Source: a bacterium (GTDB taxonomy: Bacteria > Moduliflexota > Moduliflexia > Moduliflexales > JAUQPW01). Taken from it: 64,000 bases of DNA. The stretch lies in NCBI GenBank assembly GCA_030550175.1, contig JAUQPW010000004.1, positions 21,211 through 85,210 of the forward strand. Reading direction: 5' to 3'. Positions 3,214 to 49,320 of the stretch are shown here, piece by piece; within the stretch, counting starts at the first letter, position 1; each line of letters starts with the position of its first letter. The notes under the pieces are model-generated. The model searched no databases. It worked only from the letters and a program-made list of their open reading frames with translations, and was not told the DNA's origin. The translations under genes and the position numbers were made by a program.

Positions 3214-3996
3214 ATGATAGCTTCCCGGCGGCATAATAAATTCTGGCTGGTCTATGTAGGTGTGATCATTCTCATTGCAGGATGTACCCCCAGAGAATTA
3301 ACGCGGGCCAGGGAGTTATTTAACCTGGCATCTGTATATCGTATAAATGGAGAGGACCCTCAGGCTGATCAGGCTTATAGAGAAGCCATCCTCTCTTTTC
3401 AAAAAATCATCGAGGAAGAAACCAGGGATCCAAAACATCCGGGAAATTTGCAGGTCCTGGCCCAGGCTTATGCTTTGCAAGCTTTTGCTTATATTGAGCT
3501 GGGGGAGTTCAAAGTGGCCGAAGAAACCATCCAACAGGGAAGCAGTATCCTGTTAAACGCAAATCCCCGGGAGCGGGAACTCTTCTATATCCTCAGTGGA
3601 ATCTTACAGACGGCCCAGGCTGCCAAGTTGAATGAAAAGGAAAAAGGCCGATTCCAGCAAAATGTAGTCGATCTTTACAAAGAAGCCGCCGCAACTTTTA
3701 AAGCCTTACTGGATATGCCGGGAGTTGAGCGGGATAGTGACATTGTGGCGTATGCACGGGAAGCGGAAGCCATCAGTTATGGAAATATTGCCGCCGAGTA
3801 CGAAGCCGATTTTGGGGTTAATAAAAATGTGAACTCGTTAAATAAAGCCATTGAATATTTACAGAAAGCGAAAGAAACCTGTGAACAACTTCTGGCTACG
3901 GCTTCGAATAAAAATAGACCTTATACCCAATATTTACTCCATCAGTATACCCGGGAGCTGGGACTAGCCAAGAGACGGAAGGAAAACATTTCCTAA
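3214..3996 (+). CDS. Lipoprotein with TPR-like helical region, function unknown
   Basis: Internal Met start MIASRRHNKFWLVYVGVIILIAGC gives a signal peptide with an LIAGC lipobox. The ORF track begins at 3181, but 3214 gives the canonical n-h-lipobox arrangement. Confidence 0.5.
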   Translation: MIASRRHNKFWLVYVGVIILIAGCTPRELTRARELFNLASVYRINGEDPQADQAYREAILSFQKIIEEETRDPKHPGNLQVLAQAYALQAFAYIELGEFKVAEETIQQGSSILLNANPRERELFYILSGILQTAQAAKLNEKEKGRFQQNVVDLYKEAAATFKALLDMPGVERDSDIVAYAREAEAISYGNIAAEYEADFGVNKNVNSLNKAIEYLQKAKETCEQLLATASNKNRPYTQYLLHQYTRELGLAKRRKENIS

Positions 3997-5948
3997 CTTC
4001 GCCTGTAGAGTTTTCGCTTATCCCGAATTTCTAAAAGTTTAGGTAACGCTTGCTCGGCGGCCCTTCGACCGGCGTCGATAATTTCAGGTGCTCTTTTAAA
4101 GTCCTTCCAACTGAATCCGGTAACCTCGGGTGTGATGGTAAGATCTGCCAGAGTGGCTTTGGAAAGGCCTATCTCATGTTGCAATTTTTGGAATGATCTC
4201 ATGATAATATCCACCATCTTCCAATCTTCGGTTAGAGCCTCTTCCCGAATATTTTTTTCCATATCCCCGGAACCGGTGGAGAAGTACCGTCTGAGAGGGG
4301 ATAATGCATTAACCCCTACGGTAATATCGGCGCGCATTTCGATAAGGTGACTGACCGGAATGGGATTTATGTTAGAGCCATCTACAAAAGTTTTTCCTCC
4401 TATCTTTACAGGTGGAAACAGACCCGGTATGGCCATGGAAGCCTGAAGGGCATCCCATAAAGAACCCTTTTCAAAGGCAACGTCTTTTCCGGTTTCTAAC
4501 TCCAGGGTGATAATACGAAGGGGGATTTTTAACTGACCGAACGTCTTCAAGGGTCCCAGAAAGCTGGAAATGAGTTTGAGAACTTTTTTATTTGATAGGA
4601 ACCCTCCTTGAAAAATCCTGAAGTCCTTCAACGTACCCAGCTCATATTCATAGGGTAATCGGGAGGCGATCTCGATGAGATTTTTACTTCTGGCTCCCGA
4701 AGCATAAGCCGCTCCAATAATCGCTCCGGTGTTGGTGGCTGCTATCAGGTCTATGGGTATCTTATTCTGTTCCAGGACATCGAGAACCCCTATATGGGCC
4801 AATCCCCTCGCCGCAACCCCTCCCAGGGCGATACCCAACTTTAACCCGGTAATGTACCTAGCCAACCGATGAATAGCCTCACCGGTGGGATTATCTGAAG
4901 CTTTTTCAACGATCAACTCCCCGGCTTTATAAAACGGCTCCAGTAATTCAGGCTGCCAATCTATTATCAAAGGCGGTGTCCCTGTCAAGAAATCCTCCGT
5001 TGCATCGGGGTGTTGAGGGGTCTGGTAATATACGGTTATGACCTCCTGCTGATCGAACATATGGACCGGAGGTTCTTCCCCAAAGGGGATTAAAAGTACA
5101 ATTTTATCCGATAGATCTAAAGCCTCAAAGGTACCTTTTGTAATTTCCGGACCCGTATTTATTAAAGTATAGGTAAACTTCTCCTTGAGAAGAGATAAAA
5201 TCCGGGCTATTTTCTCTCGACCGATTTTCCCTTCTCTGAGAAATTCAGGGGATAAAGCTAATAGCTGTAAACCCGAGGGATGGGAAGTCAGCATCTTTTC
5301 TACGAGTTCCTGACCGATCTCTTCGTCCTTAATTTCTTTGTCCGGATCCAGCCTCAAAATCCTGACCAGGTTAGGATTCTTAAGGGAAAGATCCAAGACG
5401 GCGACCGAGGTTTCGGTTTGTTTCAAAATGCTGGCAGCCAGGTTACTCGTTAAGAAAGCGCCTTCTATTTCTTTTCGAGGGTGGTAAATGGCTATAATAG
5501 TGTGGGTTTTGGGGTTACGCTGGACGAGCCCTTTGGTCTTTAAGGAGATCCTTTGACTCAGGGTTCTAATGACATTGTGTAAGATCTTAGGTTCTCGATG
5601 ATAGATCTCTTCAAAAACTGCCTTAGGGATGATCAGGATCTCTGCATCGATGACCACCTCGGCGGTGACGGATCTGATTTCATGGGTAATAACCGAAGTC
5701 TCACCAAAAAAATCTCCGGCGTGCAGGTACATGAGTACCTCCGGTCGGCCTTGTTCATTTCGTTCGATGATTTTGACCTGTCCTGAGAGAATAAGATACA
5801 GAGCCTGACTGGGGTCTCCTTCTTTAAAGATGACAGCCCCTCGGGAGTAATATTTTTTCTCCAATTGAGGGAGAACTCTCCGGAGTTTTGATCCCTCCAC
5901 CCCTGTAAATAAGGCGCTCTTTCTCAGTTCTTGAAGGTTAAGCATCAT
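3993..5948 (-). CDS. Cyclic nucleotide-binding domain / patatin-like phospholipase family protein with a non-canonical nucleophile (A-T-N-T-G instead of G-x-S-x-G)
   Basis: N-terminal cNMP-binding fold (GDFFGE..., LILSGQVKI). The patatin oxyanion motif GGVAARG and the DGS(A/G) Asp motif (FVDGSNINPIPV) are present. The nucleophile elbow reads DLIAATNTGAIIG where related patatins read DLIAGTSxGA. Confidence 0.75.
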   Translation of the reverse strand: MMLNLQELRKSALFTGVEGSKLRRVLPQLEKKYYSRGAVIFKEGDPSQALYLILSGQVKIIERNEQGRPEVLMYLHAGDFFGETSVITHEIRSVTAEVVIDAEILIIPKAVFEEIYHREPKILHNVIRTLSQRISLKTKGLVQRNPKTHTIIAIYHPRKEIEGAFLTSNLAASILKQTETSVAVLDLSLKNPNLVRILRLDPDKEIKDEEIGQELVEKMLTSHPSGLQLLALSPEFLREGKIGREKIARILSLLKEKFTYTLINTGPEITKGTFEALDLSDKIVLLIPFGEEPPVHMFDQQEVITVYYQTPQHPDATEDFLTGTPPLIIDWQPELLEPFYKAGELIVEKASDNPTGEAIHRLARYITGLKLGIALGGVAARGLAHIGVLDVLEQNKIPIDLIAATNTGAIIGAAYASGARSKNLIEIASRLPYEYELGTLKDFRIFQGGFLSNKKVLKLISSFLGPLKTFGQLKIPLRIITLELETGKDVAFEKGSLWDALQASMAIPGLFPPVKIGGKTFVDGSNINPIPVSHLIEMRADITVGVNALSPLRRYFSTGSGDMEKNIREEALTEDWKMVDIIMRSFQKLQHEIGLSKATLADLTITPEVTGFSWKDFKRAPEIIDAGRRAAEQALPKLLEIRDKRKLYRRS

Positions 5949-21116: not shown

Positions 21117-21235
21117 GAATCTGAATCCAGAAGTCAGAATGATAAAATTTAATGCCAGATCTCATTCGTTCCTTGACGATGAGATGATTTTTCAGCTTTA
21201 TTTTGAATTTCTGACTCCTGACCCAAGAGCTTAAA

Positions 21236-24200
21236 ATGAAATTACCTCGCCTTCTACCTTACTCGACGCTTGCACGCCTGATCATCATTATAGGCCTTTT
21301 AAGTTGTTTGTTTTTAAGTTATCTGCTCACCCGGATCCAGCCTCATTTCGGGTTGTACTGGATGGTTTTAGACCTACTTGCCATTACCCTTATAGTTCTC
21401 GCCTTTCTTCAAGCTCGTAAGGGCTTTTCTAAATCCCCCCCGGCTATGATCGTGGATATGAAGATAAAAGGATCTGCCAAGGATAGTTTGCTGACGGCAC
21501 ATATTCAGAATATTGAAAGCAAGATCAAACCCCAGAAAGATCTGCCTTATTTAGAAGACTGGGGAGAAGTGATCCCAACAGATCCCTTTTACGGACGGGA
21601 AAAGGAACTAAGTAAGCTAACCCGATGGATTATGACCGACCGCTGCCGCATAATCGCCCTATTGGGCATGGGAGGAATGGGTAAAACGGCTCTTTCAAGG
21701 AAACTAGTAGAACAAATTAAAGATCGATTTGATTTTGTCATCTGGCGTTCCCTCCGGCATGCCCCTCCCCTGGAAGATCTGCTAGGGGACTTTCTCCAAA
21801 TTTTATCCCGCCAGCAACAACCAGAGCGACGAAAAAGTATAGAACGGAGAATAGATCTCTTAATGGAGTGTCTCCAGAGACATCGTTGCCTGATTATCCT
21901 GGATAATTTAGAATCGGTCCTTTCCCAGGATGATGATTCAGACCATTATCCAGAGGGTTATGAACCCTATGGCTGGCTCATTCAGCGAATAGGAGAAATC
22001 TCTCATCAGAGTTGCTTGATCTTAACCGGTCGAAGGAAACCCAAAGAAATCTTTCACCTGGAGGGTAGGATCTCCCCGGTTCGATCTTTACAACTGGGCG
22101 GATTAAGACCGGCCGAAATTCGGGAAATCTTGAAAGATCAGAATTTATCCGGAACCCAGGAAGCCTGGATAACCCTGGTTAACCGTTATGCCGGGAATCC
22201 TTTGGCCTTGAAGCTTGTTTCTGCAACTATCCAACACTCCTTTGGAGGAGATATAACAGAATTTCTAAAGCAGGAGACCTCAAACTTTAACTTTGAAGAT
22301 ATTCAGGATCTTTTAAATCGGCAATTTAATTCCCTCTCCAATCTAGAAGAAGATATTCTCTATTGGCTGGCCATCGACCGTGAACCTGTTTCGATAAAAG
22401 AATTACTGGAAGACATGATCCATCCCGTATCCAAAGCGAAATTAAAAGAGGCTTTGGAATCTTTACAAAAACGATTTCTGGTTGAAAAAGATGAAAACGA
22501 ACGTTTTACACTCCAGCCTACCCTCATGGACTATGGGATTAATCGGTTGATAGGGCGGATTTGTGAAGAGATTTCCACAGAAACCCCCATCTTCCTCAAC
22601 AGCCATGCACTCCTTAAAGCCCAGGAAAAAGATTACATCCGAGAGAGTCAAATTCGGGTTATCCTTAAACCTACGGCCGATAGGCTTCTTAAGACCTTAG
22701 GTAGAGAAGTTGTCGAAAGTAAATTAGATAATATTCTATCAACCTTGCGAGAAAAATCTCCCCTTATACCTGGATATACCGGAGGGAATGCCCTGAATCT
22801 TTTAGTCCAGATGGAAAGTGATATAAGGAGTTATAACTTCTCGGACTTAACGATCTGGCAGGCTTATCTCCCAGGGGTCGTCCTGCACAATGTCAACTTT
22901 GCCCACGCAGACTTGAGTAAATCTGTTTTTACGAAAACCTTTGGAAGTATTTCTTCGGTTGTATTCAGTTCCGATGGAAAGTTTTTGGCCGGAGGGGGGG
23001 CCGATGGTGAAATTCGCCTTTGGCAGGTGGAAGATACCCGACTGCTTTTCACGTTTAAGGGGCATACAGGTTCTGTAATTTCCATTGCTTTTAGCCCAGA
23101 CAGTAGCATGCTAGCCAGTAGCAGTGATGATCAGACGATTAAATTATGGGATATTCAGACCGGTCGGTGTTTTCAAACCCTGCGAGGACATACCAACTGG
23201 GTAAGATCTGTGGTTTTCAATCCAGGTGGAAAAATTTTGGCCAGTAGCAGTGATGATGAAACCGTCAAGTTATGGGATGTCCGTACCGGGGAATGCCTGA
23301 GAACACTCCGGGGACACACAAATTGGGTATGGTCTGTGGCTTTCAGTCCTGATGGAAATATCCTGGCCAGTGGGAGTGATGATCAGACGATCCGACTATG
23401 GGATACCCATACCGGGGAATGTCTCAAAATGTTACAGGGACACACCGGTTGGGTAGGTTCTGTAGCTTTTAGTCCGGATGGGAACTTCCTGGCTTCTGGA
23501 AGTGCCGATCAAACCATAAGATTGTGGGATGTCCAGACTGGTCAATGTTTTAAAATTTTGCACGGCCATACCGATCGGATAAAGTCTGTTGCGTTCAGTC
23601 CTAAAGGAAATATGTTGGGTAGTGGTTCTGAGGATCAAAGCATCAAGTTATGGAGTATGAAAACGGGTGAGTGTCTTAGAACGCTCCAGGGGCATACTGA
23701 TTGGGTAAACGCAATTGCCTTTAGTCCTGATGGACATCTGCTGGCCAGTGGGAGTGAAGATCAAACTATTCGCTTATCAGAGGTTCGTACGGGCCAGTGC
23801 CTTAGAACTCTCCAGGGATATACCAACGGAATATGGACTATTGCGCTGAGTCCAGACGGAAGTATTTTAGCCAGTGGGAGTGAAGATCGACTGGTTCGGT
23901 TGTGGGATGCCCGAACAGGTCGATGCTTTAAAATTTTGAAAGGACATACGAAACGCATAAGGTCCCTTGCCTTCAGTCCTGATAACCGTATTTTAGCCAG
24001 TAGTAGTGATGATCGAACCGTTAAACTCTGGGATATCCAAACCGGTCAGTGCCTCAAAACTTTAAAGGGACATACTTCTCGGGTGAGGTCTGTGACCTTC
24101 AGTCAGGATGGGCAAACGCTGGCGAGTCGAAGTGCTGACCGAATTGTAAAAGTATGGGATGTTCGAACGGGCCTGTGCCTGGAGACTTTCCAGGGATGGA

Positions 24201-24685
24201 CCCGCTACGTCCGATCCGTTGCCTTTAGTCCGGATGGCAGTACCTTCGCCGGTGCAGGTGAAAATTACACCGTCGGTTTATGGAGCGTAAGCACAGGTCG
24301 ATGCCTTAAAACCTTCCGGGGACATTTGAGCCAGGTCTGGTCGGTCGCCTTTAGCCCGGATGGAAATATCCTGACCAGCGGAAGTGAGGATCAAACCATA
24401 AGGTTATGGGACGTTCCTACCGGCCAATGTCTTAAAACCTTGTATGGCCACCGCCACGGAGTTTGGTCCCTGGTCTTTGATCCTACAGGGGGTGTTTTAA
24501 TTAGCGGTAGTGAAGATGAAACTATTAAGTTTTGGGATGTTCAAACAGGTGAATGTCTCAAAACGCTGAGAAATGACAGGCTTTGTGAAGGAATGAATAT
24601 CACAGGAGCTAAAGGCCTGTCCGAAGCCCAGAAAGCAACTCTCAAGGCTTTGGGAGCCATCGAAAACCTGGAAAATGTCAGTTGA
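21236..24685 (+). CDS. STAND NTPase (NB-ARC/AP-ATPase) with N-terminal two-helix transmembrane module and about 14 C-terminal WD40 repeats. Candidate Avs/NLR-like defence protein.
   Basis: Two hydrophobic helices at residues about 12-32 and 41-61. Walker [17 protein letters not shown], Walker [12 protein letters not shown], then [15 protein letters not shown]...LASGSxDxTIxLWD repeated about 14 times. Confidence 0.8.
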
Positions 24686-43444: not shown

Positions 43445-46400
43445 TTATCTCTTGGCCAATTCCAGCTTCAACTCTTCAATTACTTTTTGGAGTTCCCCGA
43501 TTTGATTGTCCGCTTTAACCAAAGCAATGGCTTTTTCGCTGACGGCTTGATTGGCTATATCCAACTGGCCACGGAGCTGGCTCACCTGAGTGGTTAACTC
43601 TCCCAGAGCCTTTTCCTTTTCTTCCAGCTTTTTCCTGAACTCTTCTTGCATCTGGTTGAACTGGCTTTGAAGTTGTGCGAAGGCTTTTTCCTTTTCGTCC
43701 AGATTCTTCCGGACTTCCTCCAGTTGATTTTGTAACTGACCGGGTTGGGATCGTAAGCTTTCAAGGGCCTGATCTTTTTCCAGGAGTTGATTGTTTGCGG
43801 TGTCTAACTGGCTTCGAAGTTGAGCCATCTGGGTCAACAAACCCTCTATTTCCTTGTTCTTTTCTTCCTGGCTACGTTGAGCTTCTTCTTGTAGTTGTTT
43901 CAATCGGGTCGTTAAGGTCGTAAGCTCCTCGTCTTTTCCCTGGAGACGGGCCAGGGCTTCTTCAAGTTTACCCTGTAATTGGTTTACCTGATCGGTTAAG
44001 CTTGCAAGCAACCTGTCTTTCTCCTGGAGGTTTTGTTTCGACTCTTCCTGTAATCGGTTAAGTTGATCCGTGGCCGCAGCCAGGGCTTTATCTTTTTCAC
44101 TCAGATCTTCATTAACTGCCGCCAGTTGGTTTTGGAGTTGATCGAACTGCATAGCCCAGTTCGCCAGGGCCTGATCCTTTTCGGCAAGGACCTTCTGGCT
44201 CTCTTCCTGAGCCAGGGTAAGCTGAGCTTTTAAATCGGCTACCAGTCGATCTTTTTCTTCTTGTAATTGATTGAGCTTATGGGTTACCCGGGCTAAGGCG
44301 ATGTTCTTTTCACTTATCATGTCTTGCAGCGTCTTCAACTGACCCTGCAACTGATTAACCTGTTGGGTCACGTTGGTCACTGCAGCCTCTTTCTCCGTCA
44401 AATTTTGTTGAGATTCTTTTTTTAACTGATCCAGTTGCCGGCTCAAGTCGGTCAAAGCCAGGGTTTTTTCGCTTATATTCTGGTTGGCAACTTCTATCTG
44501 GGTTCGTAGTTGATTTATCTCTGCTATCAACTCTGCAATCCTTTGTTCTTTTTTATCTAAAGCTTTCCTGGCTTCCTCCCGTTCTTGAGCCATCTGATCC
44601 TTAAGCGCCAGGAGGGTCTGTTCCTTTTCGTTCAAAGCCTGTTGAGTCTGGTTCTGTAACTGATTCAAGGAAGCATTCAAAGAGGCAATGATTTTATCTT
44701 TCTCCTCCAGGTTCTTCTTCATTTCTTCTTGTAACTGACGGGATTGCTTATGCGAATCGGCCAACGCAAGGGTTTTTTCGCTCACATTCTGATTGGCAAA
44801 ATCCAGTTGACCCTGAAGTTGATTTAATCTGGCCGTTAGATCGGCAACTACCCGGTCTTTTTCTTCTAAACCTTTCTTTATTTCTTCCTGCAGTTGACGA
44901 ACCTGCGTGTTTAAGTCCGCAGCTATCTTTTCATTTTTCTCTAAATTCTCCTGGAGCTGGTTTCGCTGATGAATCAAATGGGCTAAAGCATTGGTTTTTT
45001 CACTGAGATTTTGGTGGGTTACTTCCAGTTGACCACGTAATTGATTTAACTGGCCTGTTAAATCCCCGATCACCCTGTCTTTCTTTGCCAGATTCTCCTG
45101 GAGTTGATTGAGTTGGTTGGTCAGGTTTACCAGGGTAATTGCTTTTTCACCTATATGTTGATGGGCCGTATTCAGTTGGGTTCGCAGCTGATTTACTTCT
45201 TGGGTTAGATCCCCGATCTTTTGCTCTTTCTCTGCCAAGCTCTTTTGAGTCTCTTTTTGTTCTCTACTCAATTCGTCAAGATTATTCTGGATCTTAGCCT
45301 GTAGATTTTTCTGCTGATGGAGTGCTTCGGTTAACCGATTCACTTCAGTATTTTTTGCCTCTAATTGAGCCCGTAATTGGTTCAACTGATCGGTTAAGCT
45401 GGCAAGAACTGCTTCCTTTTCTTGCAGATTTTTCCTACTTTCCTCCTGGACTCGATCCAATCGATTGGCTAAATCAGAGAGAGCTAATGTTTTTTCACTG
45501 AGGCTTTGATTGGCTGCATTAAGCTGGCCCAGAGACTGATTTAGTTGCGCAGTCAGGTTGGTAATGACCTGCTCTTTTTCGGTTACATTCTTTTGATATT
45601 CCTCTTGAAGTTGATTCAACTGCTTGCTTAAGTTATTGAACGCGAGGCTCTTTTCGCTGGCGTTTTGACGAGCAATATCCATTTGACCTCGGATTTGGTT
45701 GATCTGCGAAGCCAGTTCATTAACCACTCGCTCCTTTTCTGCTAAAATCCTTTGGGTTTCCTCTTGCTCCTGACTCTTCTTTTCTAAGTTACTTCGGATT
45801 TCCTCCAATTGTTTAGCGTGCCGGTTGAGATCTGCCATCAGGTTATCGATCTGAGTGTTTTTCTCATCCAGTTGAGCCTGCAACTGGTTGATCCGGCTGT
45901 TCAACTCCTCCAGGGCTTTGTTCTTTTCTTCCAGATTTTTTTGAGTTTCCTCGTGGGTCCGATTTAACTCCTTATGGATTCCCTCCAATTCAGCCAGATC
46001 CTGGTTGGCTTTCTTTAGCTGATCCTGCAACTGAGCAATCTGCTCAGTTAAATGCGTAGTTTCCCTGTCCTTTGCAGCTAACCTCTTATTTTCCCCTTGA
46101 AGCCGTCCGATCTGTTCTTTTAAGTCGGTCAAGGCTTTATCCTTTTCGGCAAGACCTTTATTTTCCTCTTGAAGCCGTCCGATCTGTTCTTTTAAGTCGG
46201 TCAAGGCTTTATCCTTCTCACTCAGGCTTTGATCGGCGTTTTTGAGTTGATCTTGCAATTCATTTACTCGAGCGGTTAAATCTCTTACCTGAGCTTCCTT
46301 TTCACTTAATGCTCTCTTAAAATCCTCCTGGACCTGGTTAAGTTGAGTTCGTAGGGTTATGAGTTCTTTGTCTTTTTCTTCAATATTTCTGCCGGCGTCT

Positions 46401-46627
46401 TCGAGTTTGCTCTGTGAATTTTTAAGTTGAGTATTTAGATCGGCCAGGATTTTATCTTTTTCGCTTAACTGCTTTTTAGATTCCTCTTGGATTTGATTTA
46501 ACTGATAACCCAGTTTACGAACTTCGCTCCTTTTGCTTGCATAGAGTCCTGTCATAAAAACTACTGCTATGGCCATGACAAGACTTAAAATGCCTAAACT
46601 TTTCTTTGTAAAAATTTGTACTTCCAT
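43445..46627 (-). CDS. Giant membrane-anchored coiled-coil protein (1060 aa) built from about 50-aa tandem repeats. Cytoskeleton-like / filament-forming candidate.
   Basis: N-terminal transmembrane helix (LGILSLVMAIAVVFMTGLY), then about 1000 residues of heptad-rich repeats (LTxQLNQLxGQLxxANQxLSEKxxAL...). Nearly no Pro, Gly or aromatic residues. Confidence 0.7.
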   Translation of the reverse strand: MEVQIFTKKSLGILSLVMAIAVVFMTGLYASKRSEVRKLGYQLNQIQEESKKQLSEKDKILADLNTQLKNSQSKLEDAGRNIEEKDKELITLRTQLNQVQEDFKRALSEKEAQVRDLTARVNELQDQLKNADQSLSEKDKALTDLKEQIGRLQEENKGLAEKDKALTDLKEQIGRLQGENKRLAAKDRETTHLTEQIAQLQDQLKKANQDLAELEGIHKELNRTHEETQKNLEEKNKALEELNSRINQLQAQLDEKNTQIDNLMADLNRHAKQLEEIRSNLEKKSQEQEETQRILAEKERVVNELASQINQIRGQMDIARQNASEKSLAFNNLSKQLNQLQEEYQKNVTEKEQVITNLTAQLNQSLGQLNAANQSLSEKTLALSDLANRLDRVQEESRKNLQEKEAVLASLTDQLNQLRAQLEAKNTEVNRLTEALHQQKNLQAKIQNNLDELSREQKETQKSLAEKEQKIGDLTQEVNQLRTQLNTAHQHIGEKAITLVNLTNQLNQLQENLAKKDRVIGDLTGQLNQLRGQLEVTHQNLSEKTNALAHLIHQRNQLQENLEKNEKIAADLNTQVRQLQEEIKKGLEEKDRVVADLTARLNQLQGQLDFANQNVSEKTLALADSHKQSRQLQEEMKKNLEEKDKIIASLNASLNQLQNQTQQALNEKEQTLLALKDQMAQEREEARKALDKKEQRIAELIAEINQLRTQIEVANQNISEKTLALTDLSRQLDQLKKESQQNLTEKEAAVTNVTQQVNQLQGQLKTLQDMISEKNIALARVTHKLNQLQEEKDRLVADLKAQLTLAQEESQKVLAEKDQALANWAMQFDQLQNQLAAVNEDLSEKDKALAAATDQLNRLQEESKQNLQEKDRLLASLTDQVNQLQGKLEEALARLQGKDEELTTLTTRLKQLQEEAQRSQEEKNKEIEGLLTQMAQLRSQLDTANNQLLEKDQALESLRSQPGQLQNQLEEVRKNLDEKEKAFAQLQSQFNQMQEEFRKKLEEKEKALGELTTQVSQLRGQLDIANQAVSEKAIALVKADNQIGELQKVIEELKLELAKR
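46097..46216. repeat. Tandem duplication of a 72-bp (24-aa) unit inside the coiled-coil gene. The first about 48 nt of the two units are identical.
   Basis: TTGAAGCCGTCCGATCTGTTCTTTTAAGTCGGTCAAGGCTTTATCCTT occurs at 46097 and again at 46169. The protein reads LTDLKEQIGRLQEENK... twice. Confidence 0.8.
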
Positions 46628-46827
46628 ACTTCTTTTCTGACTGCCTCCTCCCTAAAGTTGTTAAACTACCATTGAAAATTGATAACAATTGTCCAACAAG
46701 AATCCCCTATTTCTGGGGAATATGTCAAGGGGTTTTTTGGAAATCTTCATGGGACATGAAATCCAGATAATTTTTAATACCCAGTTGGGTTTGATAGGAA
46801 GAAGTATCGTATTGTTATCTTGTAATA

Positions 46828-46945
46828 CACTGTTTACTTAATTGTAACCTCATAGGACTGCTTTCACTCCCTAACCCCCCCTGCTGGGAGAGGGGCCGGG
46901 GGTGAGGGCTGCTTAAAAGTCAAACAAAACTAAGTAAACAATATA
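46828..46945. mobile_element. MITE-like element, copy 4, with TGTTTACTTA(A/G)TT terminal inverted repeats and the GGGAGAGGGGCCGGGGGTGAGGGC core
   Basis: Left end ACACTGTTTACTTAATTG and right end AACTAAGTAAACA are reverse complements. The internal core is shared with the other copies. Confidence 0.65.
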
Positions 46946-47285
46946 GTAATACATATTGCCATTCTGTAATAAGAATGGGAAAAGTTATGGCAACAGCCTT
47001 CCTTTAACCTCGATCAAGAGCCTTTAGTTAGCCCCTGATTTTTCAAAAATCCTATAAACGGTAATATCTTTGTAGAAATCTTTAATTTCAAGTGCAAAGG
47101 ACACAAATAACAGGAAAGTTTTATTAAACAAAGACGTCTGTTCCGGTTTATGGGAATCTTCAGGTACTTTGGAGTCGTAGAAGGTTCATTAACTTCCAGA
47201 GCTTTATCAAAGGCCACCGAAAAACGGTTTAACTTTCTCGGTCTCAGATAAAGTCTAAGGGTCTAAAGAGTATTATCTGGAAAGG

Positions 47286-47672
47286 ATGGAAAAGAATGGG
47301 AAAGGCAAGAGTGAAAAAAATGTAACCTTCCTTCCTACACTTATCCATGCTCTTCTTTTAACGATGATGGGGGTCATACTTTTTTATATCTACTCAACTG
47401 CCTCTTTTGCTCAGATCCCCTGTACCCTGGGGACCCCTAAGCACTTCCAGCGTGTGCTTATTATTGTTCTTGAGAATCAGAATTATAAGGAGGTAATGAA
47501 AGATTCTTACTTCTGCTCCCTGGCCCAGCGTGGTGCGAACTTCACCAATTTTCATGGGTTGTTTCATCCTTCTTACTCGAACTATTTAGCCATGGTATCC
47601 GGCAAGAAGATCCGAACTCACTTCGACTGGCAGGTTGATTTAACAGATCATAAAACGATTGCCGATTCATAG
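47286..47672 (+). pseudogene. Possible N-terminal fragment of a phosphoesterase (PLC/AcpA family), truncated after 128 aa
   Basis: A transmembrane/signal segment, then RVLIIVLENQNY...DSYFCSLAQRG...HPSYSNYLAMVSG resembling the family N-terminus (VVLMQENRSFDHYFGTLRG...). No ORF continues for about 800 bp downstream. Confidence 0.3.
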
Positions 47673-48244
47673 GGGCATAGGGAGATTTCCTGTTCTTTCC
47701 AGGATGGTTTTAATTCGATTAAGTTAGTTTTGATATTTAATCCCCGGAAAGCACCAGGTCACACATTTTGTGAGTTTGTCCCTGCACTTCCTTTGTAGAC
47801 TAAATAAGCCGATAGGTCAGTGGGAATTATTGTCTTAGAAATCGGTCGGATATGATTTTGCATAAATATAAAACAAAATCCTAAGAGGGCTCCTATAAAG
47901 ATCCTTCTCTTGAAAATAACTACCCTAATTCTTTTTCCTTCCTGAAGGGAGGTTCCTGGATGGAGGATTCATCAAATCTTCCTGGAGAATACCCCATCGG
48001 TTTTCTTGGAGATTCAATTTCCCCTCGATTTTATACCTGTTTACCAGAAAAACACGAGGTAAGGGGTCGGGTCGTCCTATGCAGTTACTTTCCAAGAGTA
48101 GCTATAGAGGTCTGCTTCCATATTTTCAGATCAGTTGCTTCATCCTCGGATTATGCAGAACGGAGCTTTCTGATTTTATCTCTTTTCTAAAGCAAAGACC
48201 ATACCACCGGCCAGCTTCTGTCCGCCAGGGGAAACAGAATCCTA

Positions 48245-48388
48245 TCTTTCTCTAAGTCCCAGCAGGGTGACCTGTTTAACAGGCCGCTCCTCCAGAGCTT
48301 GAAAAAATTCTGATTGACTGAATCCCCCCGACCTGCGTCGGGAGCTACCCGCTGTTCGCCCCTGACGGGGCTTTTCAGCTTATCCTGG
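48245..48388 (-). ncRNA. Structured repeat element B, homologous to element A at 17860-18000. It begins with CCAGGATAAGCTGAAAAG and lies about 110 nt downstream of the selenoprotein gene on the same strand.
   Basis: Collinear alignment to element A. Compensatory changes include A-CCCC...GGGG-T versus G-CCCC...GGGG-C, CCGACGAAAGTCGG versus CCCGACGCAGGTCGGG, and CCTGTTAAATAGG versus CCTGTTAAACAGG. Confidence 0.45.
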
Positions 48389-48498
48389 CGCCCATGGGGA
48401 TGGGGGGTTGAGGTAGCCTGCCCCTGGGCAGGCGGAACACAACTTTATGGAACCTTATCCACCCATCAAACGAGACGTTTGACCTACTGGAATAGGTA

Positions 48499-49320
48499 TT
48501 ATTTAGAAACAAGGGGAGGGGAAAAGGGGTTCTGATAGGTTTCTCGACGCCAGCGGTAGGGGAGATCCCGGATCGTGCCGGGGGTATCCAGAATCTGGAG
48601 CGCATCCAGCATCTCTTTTAGAATGGTCATTTGTTGATTTACCTGAAAGGGTTCTCCCAAAGGATGCCCGAAAGGCCAACGAAGAAACAAAGCCCTGGGA
48701 GGTTTAACGGCTTCTGTAATTTTACGTACCAGGGTGATAGAAATCGTAGAAATACCCTTCCGTTCAACTTCTCGCTGGATCAGTCCTACAGACTGATTGC
48801 AGAGCCCTCAGGCCGGGGTTAAAAGGACTGCATCCACCTGAGCTGCCCTAAGTTTTTCGGCCACCTCAGGAGCTGTTTGTCGTATCAGGATATCTATCAA
48901 ATCCTTATCGATATGGCCCATAAAACTGTAATGAAAAGGGGCTTCTTCTCCAATGACCCGGAGTTGGACCAGCTCTTTTAAGCGTTCTATGGGGAAGATG
49001 ATATTGATATCCCTGTCGGCATCGTGATGATCGTAGTAATCATGGGTAATCGTTAAGTCCTCCCGGGAAGTATCTCGAGGAATTTCCCGGTAGGTAGGGT
49101 CTCCCTGGGGGTTTTTCATGTCAAAGGGGGGTTGATTTTTTAAATGAACGCCACCTGTTGTAATTAAGGCGACCCGACAATCTTTAATCTCTTTCTTTAA
49201 GGGCGTCCAGGGAACGTCCCGACTTTCCCGAAAAGAGGTTTTCTCTGCCCAACGATCCGCGAGTTGAGGGAATTTTGTAAAGAATTTAGCCAGAAGTCTA
49301 TTTTTAATGCTTCGAAACAA
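48499..49320 (-). CDS. Selenoprotein B-like (GrdB/PrdB-family-like) reductase component with one in-frame TGA (Sec) at 48808-48810 in a U-G-L-C redox motif. The ORF track splits it into two ORFs.
   Basis: Minus-strand ORFs 48808..49320 and 48499..48690 share one reading frame (630 nt apart). The 117-nt gap between them is open in that frame, and the only interruption is the TGA. Read-through gives ...AVLLTPA-U-GLCNQSVGLIQREVERKG.... The N-terminal part carries ALITTGGVHLK. Only alternative starts (TTG) are available. Confidence 0.55.
48778..48798 (-). promoter_or_regulatory. SECIS-like stem-loop 10 nt downstream of the in-frame UGA (7-bp perfect stem AUCAGUC / GACUGAU, loop UGUAG containing GU)
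   Basis: The mRNA reads UGA GGGCUCUGCA AUCAGUC UGUAG GACUGAU C. Spacing and apical GU are compatible with a bacterial SECIS. Confidence 0.4.

Follow-up and report, generated by a model that had tools for sequence, protein, structure and literature searches.

Bacterial signal transduction ATPases with numerous domains (STAND) that resemble Apaf-1 and carry WD40 sensors are known, the closest of them in cyanobacteria and some with caspase-like proteases at the N-terminus (PMC13581612), and Apaf-1-like WD40 sensors are treated in the cited STAND literature as defence-type sensors (10.1101/2022.07.19.500537; PMC13581612). Transmembrane (TM) segments are among the domains of bacterial STAND proteins (10.1101/2022.07.19.500537; also an Extended Data legend of PMC13581612), and in related conflict systems they have been taken to indicate a function near the membrane (PMC7159879). 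No description or test of a protein combining a TM hairpin, an NB-ARC core and WD40 repeats was found in the literature searched. Such a protein is encoded in the stretch of DNA analysed here, 64,000 nucleotides from a bacterium of the order Moduliflexales (assembly GCA_030550175.1, contig JAUQPW010000004.1, positions 21,211 to 85,210), hereafter the window; the locations of its features are given in Table 1.

The protein is an intact Apaf-1-type STAND switch on a single polypeptide with a sensor-like WD40 region, and, by prediction, a two-helix hairpin at its N-terminus tethers it to the inner membrane on the cytoplasmic side. A preliminary description, made from the sequence alone, had proposed an order of two TM helices, NB-ARC core, helical region and WD40 propellers, and this layout was recovered by Kyte-Doolittle and Hessa hydrophobicity, an AlphaFold2 model, the Pfam NB-ARC profile and the WD40 repeats. 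Its functional interpretation, that of a putative antiviral sensor that would punch membranes, is plausible and is weighed below.

Switch core and WD40 region

The Pfam NB-ARC profile matches residues 122-224 with 53.9 bits (cutoff 23.5, E 2e-14), which places the protein among the STAND ATPases of the AP-ATPase/NB-ARC clade; the NACHT profile matches more weakly, with 40.4 bits. The motifs GMGGMGKT and hhhhDN named in the preliminary description are both present (the latter as LIILDN) and agree with the Walker A and Walker B consensus sequences GxxxxGK[ST] and hhhhD. In an alignment of 59 family sequences, K150, D223, N224, R266 and the GNPLA motif are invariant. Arg266 is presumably the sensor 1 arginine. 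The hhhhDN form of Walker B is family-wide, Asn224 occupying in all 59 sequences the place where a second acidic residue is usual. In the AlphaFold2 model (mean pLDDT 82.5; nucleotide-binding oligomerisation module and most blades above 85-90), a nucleotide-binding domain (NBD), first helical domain (HD1), winged-helix domain (WHD) and second helical domain (HD2) follow one another in the order of Apaf-1, with the GxP motif and the putative sensor 1 arginine in place.

Tandem Repeats Finder detected a period of 126 bp in the DNA encoding the WD40 region, and 13 Pfam WD40 stretches were identified. The array expected by the preliminary description is therefore real, and its estimate of about 14 blades has to be lowered to 13, one for each exact 42-residue repeat; the AlphaFold2 model contains 48 beta-strands in this region, and a low-confidence gap at residues 979-1019 has space for four more, which gives the same number. 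The repeats are on average 52% identical to each other in protein and 59% in nucleotide sequence, so they are not of the near-identical "highly repetitive" type. They vary most at repeat positions 2, 6, 7, 9, 18, 19 and 35, of which 6, 7 and 9 follow the GHT motif and are expected, from WD40 proteins in general, at the propeller's top face. The C-terminal tail has the lowest ratio of nonsynonymous to synonymous substitution rates (dN/dS) within the gene, 0.04. In the databases, many homologues stop within the WD40 array and are followed by a short separate WD40 open reading frame (for example, contig L039 10292..10633 and contig L042 10938..11103); these truncations suggest frameshifts or assembly breaks in the repeats, and the listed lengths therefore understate the true proteins.

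The likeness to Apaf-1 noted in the preliminary description extends over the full length. In Foldseek, structures of full-length Apaf-1 come second to a Nostoc propeller and align with the model over 1132-1178 columns (E 4e-49 to 1e-46); among the 50 matches listed, Apaf-1 is the only solved structure that spans both the switch core and the propellers, which in both proteins come directly after HD2 (3SHF, 3SFZ). The two proteins share the NBD-HD1-WHD-HD2 core followed by two WD40 propellers, and Walker A, the GxP motif and the probable sensor 1 arginine (Arg266) are present. They differ in that the bacterial protein has 13 blades rather than 15, DN rather than DD in Walker B, and a TM hairpin in place of the CARD; neither a CARD or other Death-fold adaptor nor a caspase-like protease was found at the N-terminus, two TM helices standing there instead. 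Sequence identity to Apaf-1 is just 20-21%. The protein is thus a member of the AP-ATPase/NB-ARC clade with Apaf-1-like architecture.

Much closer in sequence is a family of cyanobacterial proteins annotated as "NB-ARC domain-containing protein", whose switch cores are 43-58% identical to that of the window and which have the same pentapeptide-like connector, 42-residue repeats and C-terminal tail. Their propeller is exemplified by the 14-blade double propeller of Nostoc (2YMU), which at 44% identity is the top Foldseek match. In contrast to this family, the protein of the window comes from outside the cyanobacteria and has a TM hairpin with no relative in sequence, whereas most members have N-termini resembling helix-turn-helix (HTH) domains.

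Table 1. Features of the STAND gene and its product (positions in the window; amino acid residues of the 1149-residue protein)
Feature	Residues	Position	Strand	Basis
Ribosome-binding region		21219..21235	+	AAGAG 6 nt 5' of ATG
Gene for membrane-anchored (predicted) NB-ARC/WD40 STAND NTPase	1-1149	21236..24685	+	Complete open reading frame, 1149 aa + stop
TM helix 1 (predicted)	12-32	21269..21331	+	K2, R5, R14 listed as preceding; Kyte-Doolittle 2.31; Hessa sum -0.91; AlphaFold2 helix 11-33
TM helix 2 (predicted)	38-58	21347..21409	+	Kyte-Doolittle 2.42; Hessa sum -0.88; AlphaFold2 helix 41-58; R61, K62 after
Flexible linker	59-105	21410..21550	+	pLDDT <50 over 57-102; highest dN/dS of the gene, 0.52
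Nucleotide-binding oligomerisation module (NBD, HD1, WHD, HD2)	106-530	21551..22825	+	Pfam NB-ARC; AlphaFold2 pLDDT mostly >85; collinear with Apaf-1
Walker A, GMGGMGKT	144-151 (G144-T151)	21665-21688	+	Sequence motif
Walker B, LIILDN	219-224 (L219-N224)	21890-21907	+	Sequence motif
GNPLA (GxP) motif	320-324	within the nucleotide-binding oligomerisation module	+	Conserved in 59-sequence alignment
Pentapeptide-repeat-like connector	531-564	22826..22927	+	Pfam Pentapeptide E 0.0021, sub-threshold; consensus conserved across family
Thirteen tandem 42-aa WD40 repeats, putative ligand sensor	565-1110	22928..24565	+	13 Pfam WD40 stretches; exact register
C-terminal tail	1111-1149 + stop	24566..24685	+	Holds a 23-letter motif; AlphaFold2 helix 1130-1138, low confidence

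The N-terminal hairpin and its possible role

The two predicted TM helices are the sole strongly hydrophobic segments of the protein: their Kyte-Doolittle 19-residue maxima (Table 1) compare with a protein-wide mean of -0.22 (standard deviation 0.60), and the best value on the Hessa scale anywhere else in the protein is +8.6, as against about -0.9 for each of them. The loop that separates them, TRIQPHFG, counts 5-8 residues, according to how the helix boundaries are set. Under the positive-inside rule, the charges fit a hairpin with both termini inside and the remainder of the protein in the cytoplasm. Two orthologues about 92% identical to the protein have intact reading frames and no insertions or deletions (indels) in the N-terminus; their changes inside both helices exchange one hydrophobic residue for another, with the single exception of G39W at the start of TM helix 2, and an aspartate within this predicted helix, Asp46, is unchanged in both.

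The hydrophobic N-terminus would be absent from the protein, leaving it soluble, if translation started at Met71 or Met75. In-frame Met codons are found at residues 43, 71 and 75, and the alignment of the cyanobacterial relatives begins only at about residue 108. Even so, a downstream start is extremely unlikely because the N-terminus is conserved without indels, the Shine-Dalgarno-like motif is kept and independent gene callers agree. Residues 1-60 have a dN/dS of 0.38 and conservative hydrophobic changes, whereas the upstream spacer does have indels: its last 50 nt before the ATG are conserved in the orthologue contig L036 and the rest of the spacer differs in length (119 vs 83 bp). The motif 6 nt 5' of the first ATG is matched in L036 by a canonical AGGAG, likewise 6 nt ahead of the equivalent ATG. 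The same product was called by independent pipelines on Logan, ENA and JGI contigs, the identical protein is already in the databases, and its 90% identity cluster consists of three members, each of 1149 residues, one of them annotated as Candidatus Limnocylindrales bacterium (Chloroflexota). TM segments also open 30 of the 120 relatives described next.

A search with residues 1-565 (E <= 1e-5) returned at least 1589 proteins, mostly cyanobacterial, the best of them 58% identical. A scan of species-representative genomes gave 33 loci, 32 of them in records titled as cyanobacterial, and nearly all of the loci match only from about residue 108; the species of the window is not among them. Among the top 120 matches, from which the following counts were taken, the region ahead of the conserved entry to the switch core (DWGE...FYGR) is highly variable. 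It consists of TM segments (one type with a single TM, several unrelated types with two) in 30, a helical module with the pattern RxRGVxLT...GVDKRTL in about 25, a PF26355-type module in 16, an XRE HTH in 9, GerE in 5, CHAT in 1-2, and TIR_2, DUF4062 and SARP/BTAD in 1 each; modules of HTH type number about 55. Comparison of these sequences supports a slot that behaves as a swappable output module, and roughly a quarter of the closest relatives are predicted to be membrane-tethered. In a rough neighbour-joining tree of the switch core, drawn without support values, TM-bearing members are split among four or more groups, with soluble members between them, and the protein of the window groups with the TM types P0002 (a Nitrospira metagenome-assembled genome), P0001/P0065 and P0044.

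Profile comparisons place the protein outside the Avs, bNACHT, SLATT and HeLo/Bell families. It follows the same three-part plan as the antiphage proteins Avs1-5/7 and bNACHT, with an output at the N-terminus, a STAND switch next and a sensor of repeats at the C-terminus, and TM segments are catalogued among the domains of those proteins (10.1101/2022.07.19.500537; PMC13581612); it differs from them in that its sensor is made of WD40 repeats and theirs is TPR-like, and in lacking a defence-island context. The stronger NB-ARC match and the absence of any bNACHT model among the PADLOC matches set it apart from bNACHT, and scans with PADLOC of the whole protein and of its N-terminal 571 residues gave just one HEAT-ARM_XIII match driven by the WD40 repeats and sub-threshold matches to the P-loop. 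The parallel drawn in the preliminary description with Avs and NLR-like antiphage sensors holds for the swappable N-terminal slot, which contains TIR and CHAT in relatives, and is not supported for membership in Avs or bNACHT or for a defence-island context, none being seen in the window or around three TM-bearing homologues. Pfam, searched with the whole protein at E <= 1, gave no domain in residues 1-107 and no match to SLATT, HeLo or any other family there, and the AlphaFold2 model shows just two helices followed by disorder, without the shielding bundle looked for as a mark of SLATT and HeLo-Hell-Bell modules.

By sequence of the NBD, the closest solved proteins are plant NLRs with a coiled-coil (CC) N-terminus, the resistosome formers MLA13, NRC4, Sr35 and ZAR1 (E 4e-5 to 3e-3). 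Oligomerisation of CC-NLRs gathers their N-terminal helices into a membrane channel. Their sensor is a leucine-rich repeat domain and their CC, a bundle of four helices, is soluble and enters the membrane only upon activation, whereas the helices of the window's protein are predicted to be hydrophobic enough for constitutive embedding in the membrane. Short non-enzymatic TM modules that are fused to a sensor and disrupt the membrane once activated are found in the CBASS and Pycsar effectors Cap14/Cap15 and PycTM and in the SLATT 2TM proteins (see also PMC7159879); their trigger is a nucleotide second messenger and not a STAND switch, and the window's protein has no Pfam match to SLATT.

From Apaf-1, the plant CC-NLRs and Avs, a mechanism may be proposed in which the top face of the WD40 propellers binds a protein ligand, releasing autoinhibition, and the NB-ARC core, exchanging its nucleotide, assembles into a ring at the membrane. 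The trigger could be a phage protein or some other non-self or stress signal. With less confidence, such a ring would act through the TM hairpins, since neither a further output domain nor a conserved partner gene was found. It would cluster 7-8 hairpins, that is 14-16 helices each with an intramembrane Asp46, into a bundle through which ions might leak or which might disrupt the membrane, so that the cell is arrested or killed. The protein would then correspond to the ZAR1/Sr35 resistosome funnel, or to the minimal CBASS and Pycsar TM effectors, in a constitutively embedded form.

This abortive-infection reading, put forward in the preliminary description, is tentative. It has not been refuted, because TM helices are predicted and the protein is not placed with the kinase-associated WD40 ATPases of housekeeping role. 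In its favour, the hairpin stands where close relatives have TIR, CHAT or DNA-binding outputs; N-termini with TM segments, several of them unrelated in sequence, have turned up in more than one group of the tree; minimal TM effectors and resistosome channels offer precedents; neither the gene nor its TM-bearing homologues have a conserved partner gene nearby, and the N-terminal 107 residues have no Pfam domain that might serve instead; the switch residues K150, D223, GNPLA and R266 (putative sensor 1) are intact; and the variation among repeats, sensor-like, is concentrated at the positions after GHT that are expected on the top face.

A number of observations weigh on the other side. Three TM-bearing homologues, around which no neighbours are conserved, have housekeeping or transposon-rich contexts with no sign of defence (too small a sample for statistics), and PADLOC found no match in the three flanking genes scanned (those for the ChsH2-like protein, LarA and the PF04020 protein). 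The NTPase core itself reaches no PADLOC model, the best being Avs4, at 10.9 bits (E 0.012) and confined to the P-loop. An Asn after the Walker B Asp (DN rather than DD or DE) may mean slow hydrolysis in STAND proteins. Asp46 is not conserved in other TM-type homologues. The place among metabolic genes is kept across populations (dS about 0.2) under purifying selection that includes the WD40 region (dN/dS 0.16). Most family members carry HTH-like N-termini, and therefore non-lethal outputs are implied. A HMMER search with residues 1-105 against 1.84 billion representatives gave no credible homologue; such an orphan TM module, its relaxed constraint (dN/dS 0.38 for residues 1-60) and a disordered tether are classic features of an anchor.

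Several of these observations also speak for a competing and somewhat less probable alternative, a membrane-tethered signalling or scaffolding STAND protein in which the hairpin only localises and the output is non-lethal, for example sequestration and release of a WD40 ligand or recruitment of an unlinked partner. The orphan TM sequence, the chromosomal context, conserved and unrelated to defence under purifying selection, and the regulatory HTH-like N-termini of most relatives agree with it, as do the rates of evolution, which within the gene are highest in the linker and the TM module. This protein has a disordered linker, long linkers rich in P, S and Q occur in homologues, and unrelated TM sequences are interchangeable across the family. 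On the other hand, neither an adaptor or enzymatic domain nor a conserved neighbour that could carry the output was found, and the N-terminal slot of STAND proteins is normally an effector or adaptor, as the TIR and CHAT domains of relatives illustrate. The indirect evidence on a pore is mixed: the orphan sequence, relaxed constraint and disordered tether would suit a simple anchor just as well.

If the hairpin is the effector, the protein would be a one-gene bacterial system that couples an Apaf-1-type switch directly to membrane permeabilisation, a bacterial counterpart to the plant resistosome channel mechanism, and a tractable module of about 60 residues for learning how TM helices become a pore on oligomerisation. 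A stronger form of the pore reading, which is unlikely, would make it a prokaryotic "pre-inserted resistosome", in which a ligand-driven ring brings 14-16 TM helices together as an ion channel, its lumen lined by Asp46, and cell death or arrest follows, and in which the TM-anchored NB-ARC-WD40 proteins of cyanobacteria, Nitrospira and Chloroflexota would constitute a widespread undescribed class of channel-forming bacterial NLRs. If the hairpin is an anchor only, the protein just adds to the uncharacterised members of a very large STAND family, and the useful point is that about a quarter of its closest relatives are predicted to be membrane-tethered. In either case it is less distinctive than first appeared, because that quarter shares its membrane-anchored layout.

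Two further observations concern N-terminal TM sequences. The sole HMMER match to residues 1-105 (E 5e-4) was judged spurious, being a repetitive and unrelated TM protein. The single-TM relatives P0016, P0025, P0043, P0058, P0067 and P0078 open with MDAxAxLTLIGLVxGIIAGVVQVLDYLEKRREK, a helix at the extreme N-terminus with a glycine-zipper-like GxxxGxxxG pattern, which is reminiscent of the N-terminal helix of HeLo/Bell domains (10.1101/2024.11.07.622273).

Inheritance and genomic context

As the preliminary description stated, the STAND gene lies between metabolic genes. Upstream are genes for a PQQ dehydrogenase, a cytochrome c, an HpcH aldolase and a ChsH2-like protein, and downstream are genes for LarA, a PF04020 protein, ACPS, VanZ and DeoC. 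Gene order is kept in the orthologous contigs, which have PQQ dehydrogenase, cytochrome c, HpcH, dodecin and ChsH2-like genes upstream and LarA, PF04020, ACPS, VanZ, DeoC and TPS genes downstream. Relative to its orthologue, the STAND gene has a dS of 0.215 (neighbours 0.18-0.29) and a whole-gene dN/dS of 0.188 (neighbours 0.016-0.125). Because its dS matches that of the neighbours, synteny is kept and dN/dS is low, the gene is vertically inherited at this location and under purifying selection. Recent horizontal transfer was rejected, the GC content of the gene being unremarkable and matching its surroundings as its dS matches that of its neighbours. By part, dN/dS is 0.38 in the TM module, 0.52 in the linker, 0.31 in the NBD region, 0.12 in the helical domains, 0.16 in the WD40 region and 0.04 in the tail; the gene thus changes at a higher rate than its neighbours, with the weakest constraint at its N-terminus. 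For the WD40 region, diversifying selection was rejected at the scale tested, given its dN/dS of 0.16. A scan for promoters and terminators gave counts at or below shuffle expectation, and Rfam and tRNA scans of the window gave no match.

The conserved location raises the alternative that the protein is a regulator tied in function to the flanking metabolic genes (the ChsH2-like/HpcH cluster or LarA) and not a conflict system. The STAND gene is on the same strand as its neighbours, the adjacency is conserved in three populations, and in two distant metagenomic contigs the gene immediately upstream of larA is an unrelated WD40 gene. This connection is nevertheless very unlikely: Pfam found no DNA-binding or enzymatic output domain in the STAND protein, the contexts of TM-type homologues are unrelated, the adjacency of WD40 and larA genes occurs in only 2 of 53 loci that have enough sequence upstream to be informative, both apparently from one lineage, and the dN/dS of the STAND gene is 1.5-12 times that of the neighbours. 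In the metagenome scan with LarA, the best match was just 64% identical, too distant for a close comparison of synteny.

The WD40 genes adjacent to larA (L084 2..1618 and L057 1..1254) have irregular repeats and are on the same strand as larA; the LarA proteins of these contigs are about 55% identical to that of the window, and the N-termini of the WD40 genes are cut by the contig ends.

Elsewhere in the window, 43445..46627 on the minus strand encodes a protein of 1060 residues in which a single hydrophobic segment at the N-terminus precedes about 1000 residues of highly repetitive coiled coil; SEK..AL..L..QLNQLQEE units recur there, and the protein's matches to SMC, Rad50, JetC and LmuB models are solely of the coiled-coil type. 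Next to it, a region of about 2.1 kb (approximately 46700..48800) has the lowest GC content of the window (0.397), no open reading frame of more than 128 codons and no match in the Rfam and tRNA scans. At a distance of some 15 kb from the STAND gene, 3993..5948 on the minus strand encodes a cyclic nucleotide-binding domain fused to a patatin-like phospholipase. PADLOC matches this protein weakly at residues 26-152 with its PycTIR and TIR-effector models, and also with a phospholipase Effector model; residues 26-152 are the CRP cAMP-binding region according to NCBIfam.

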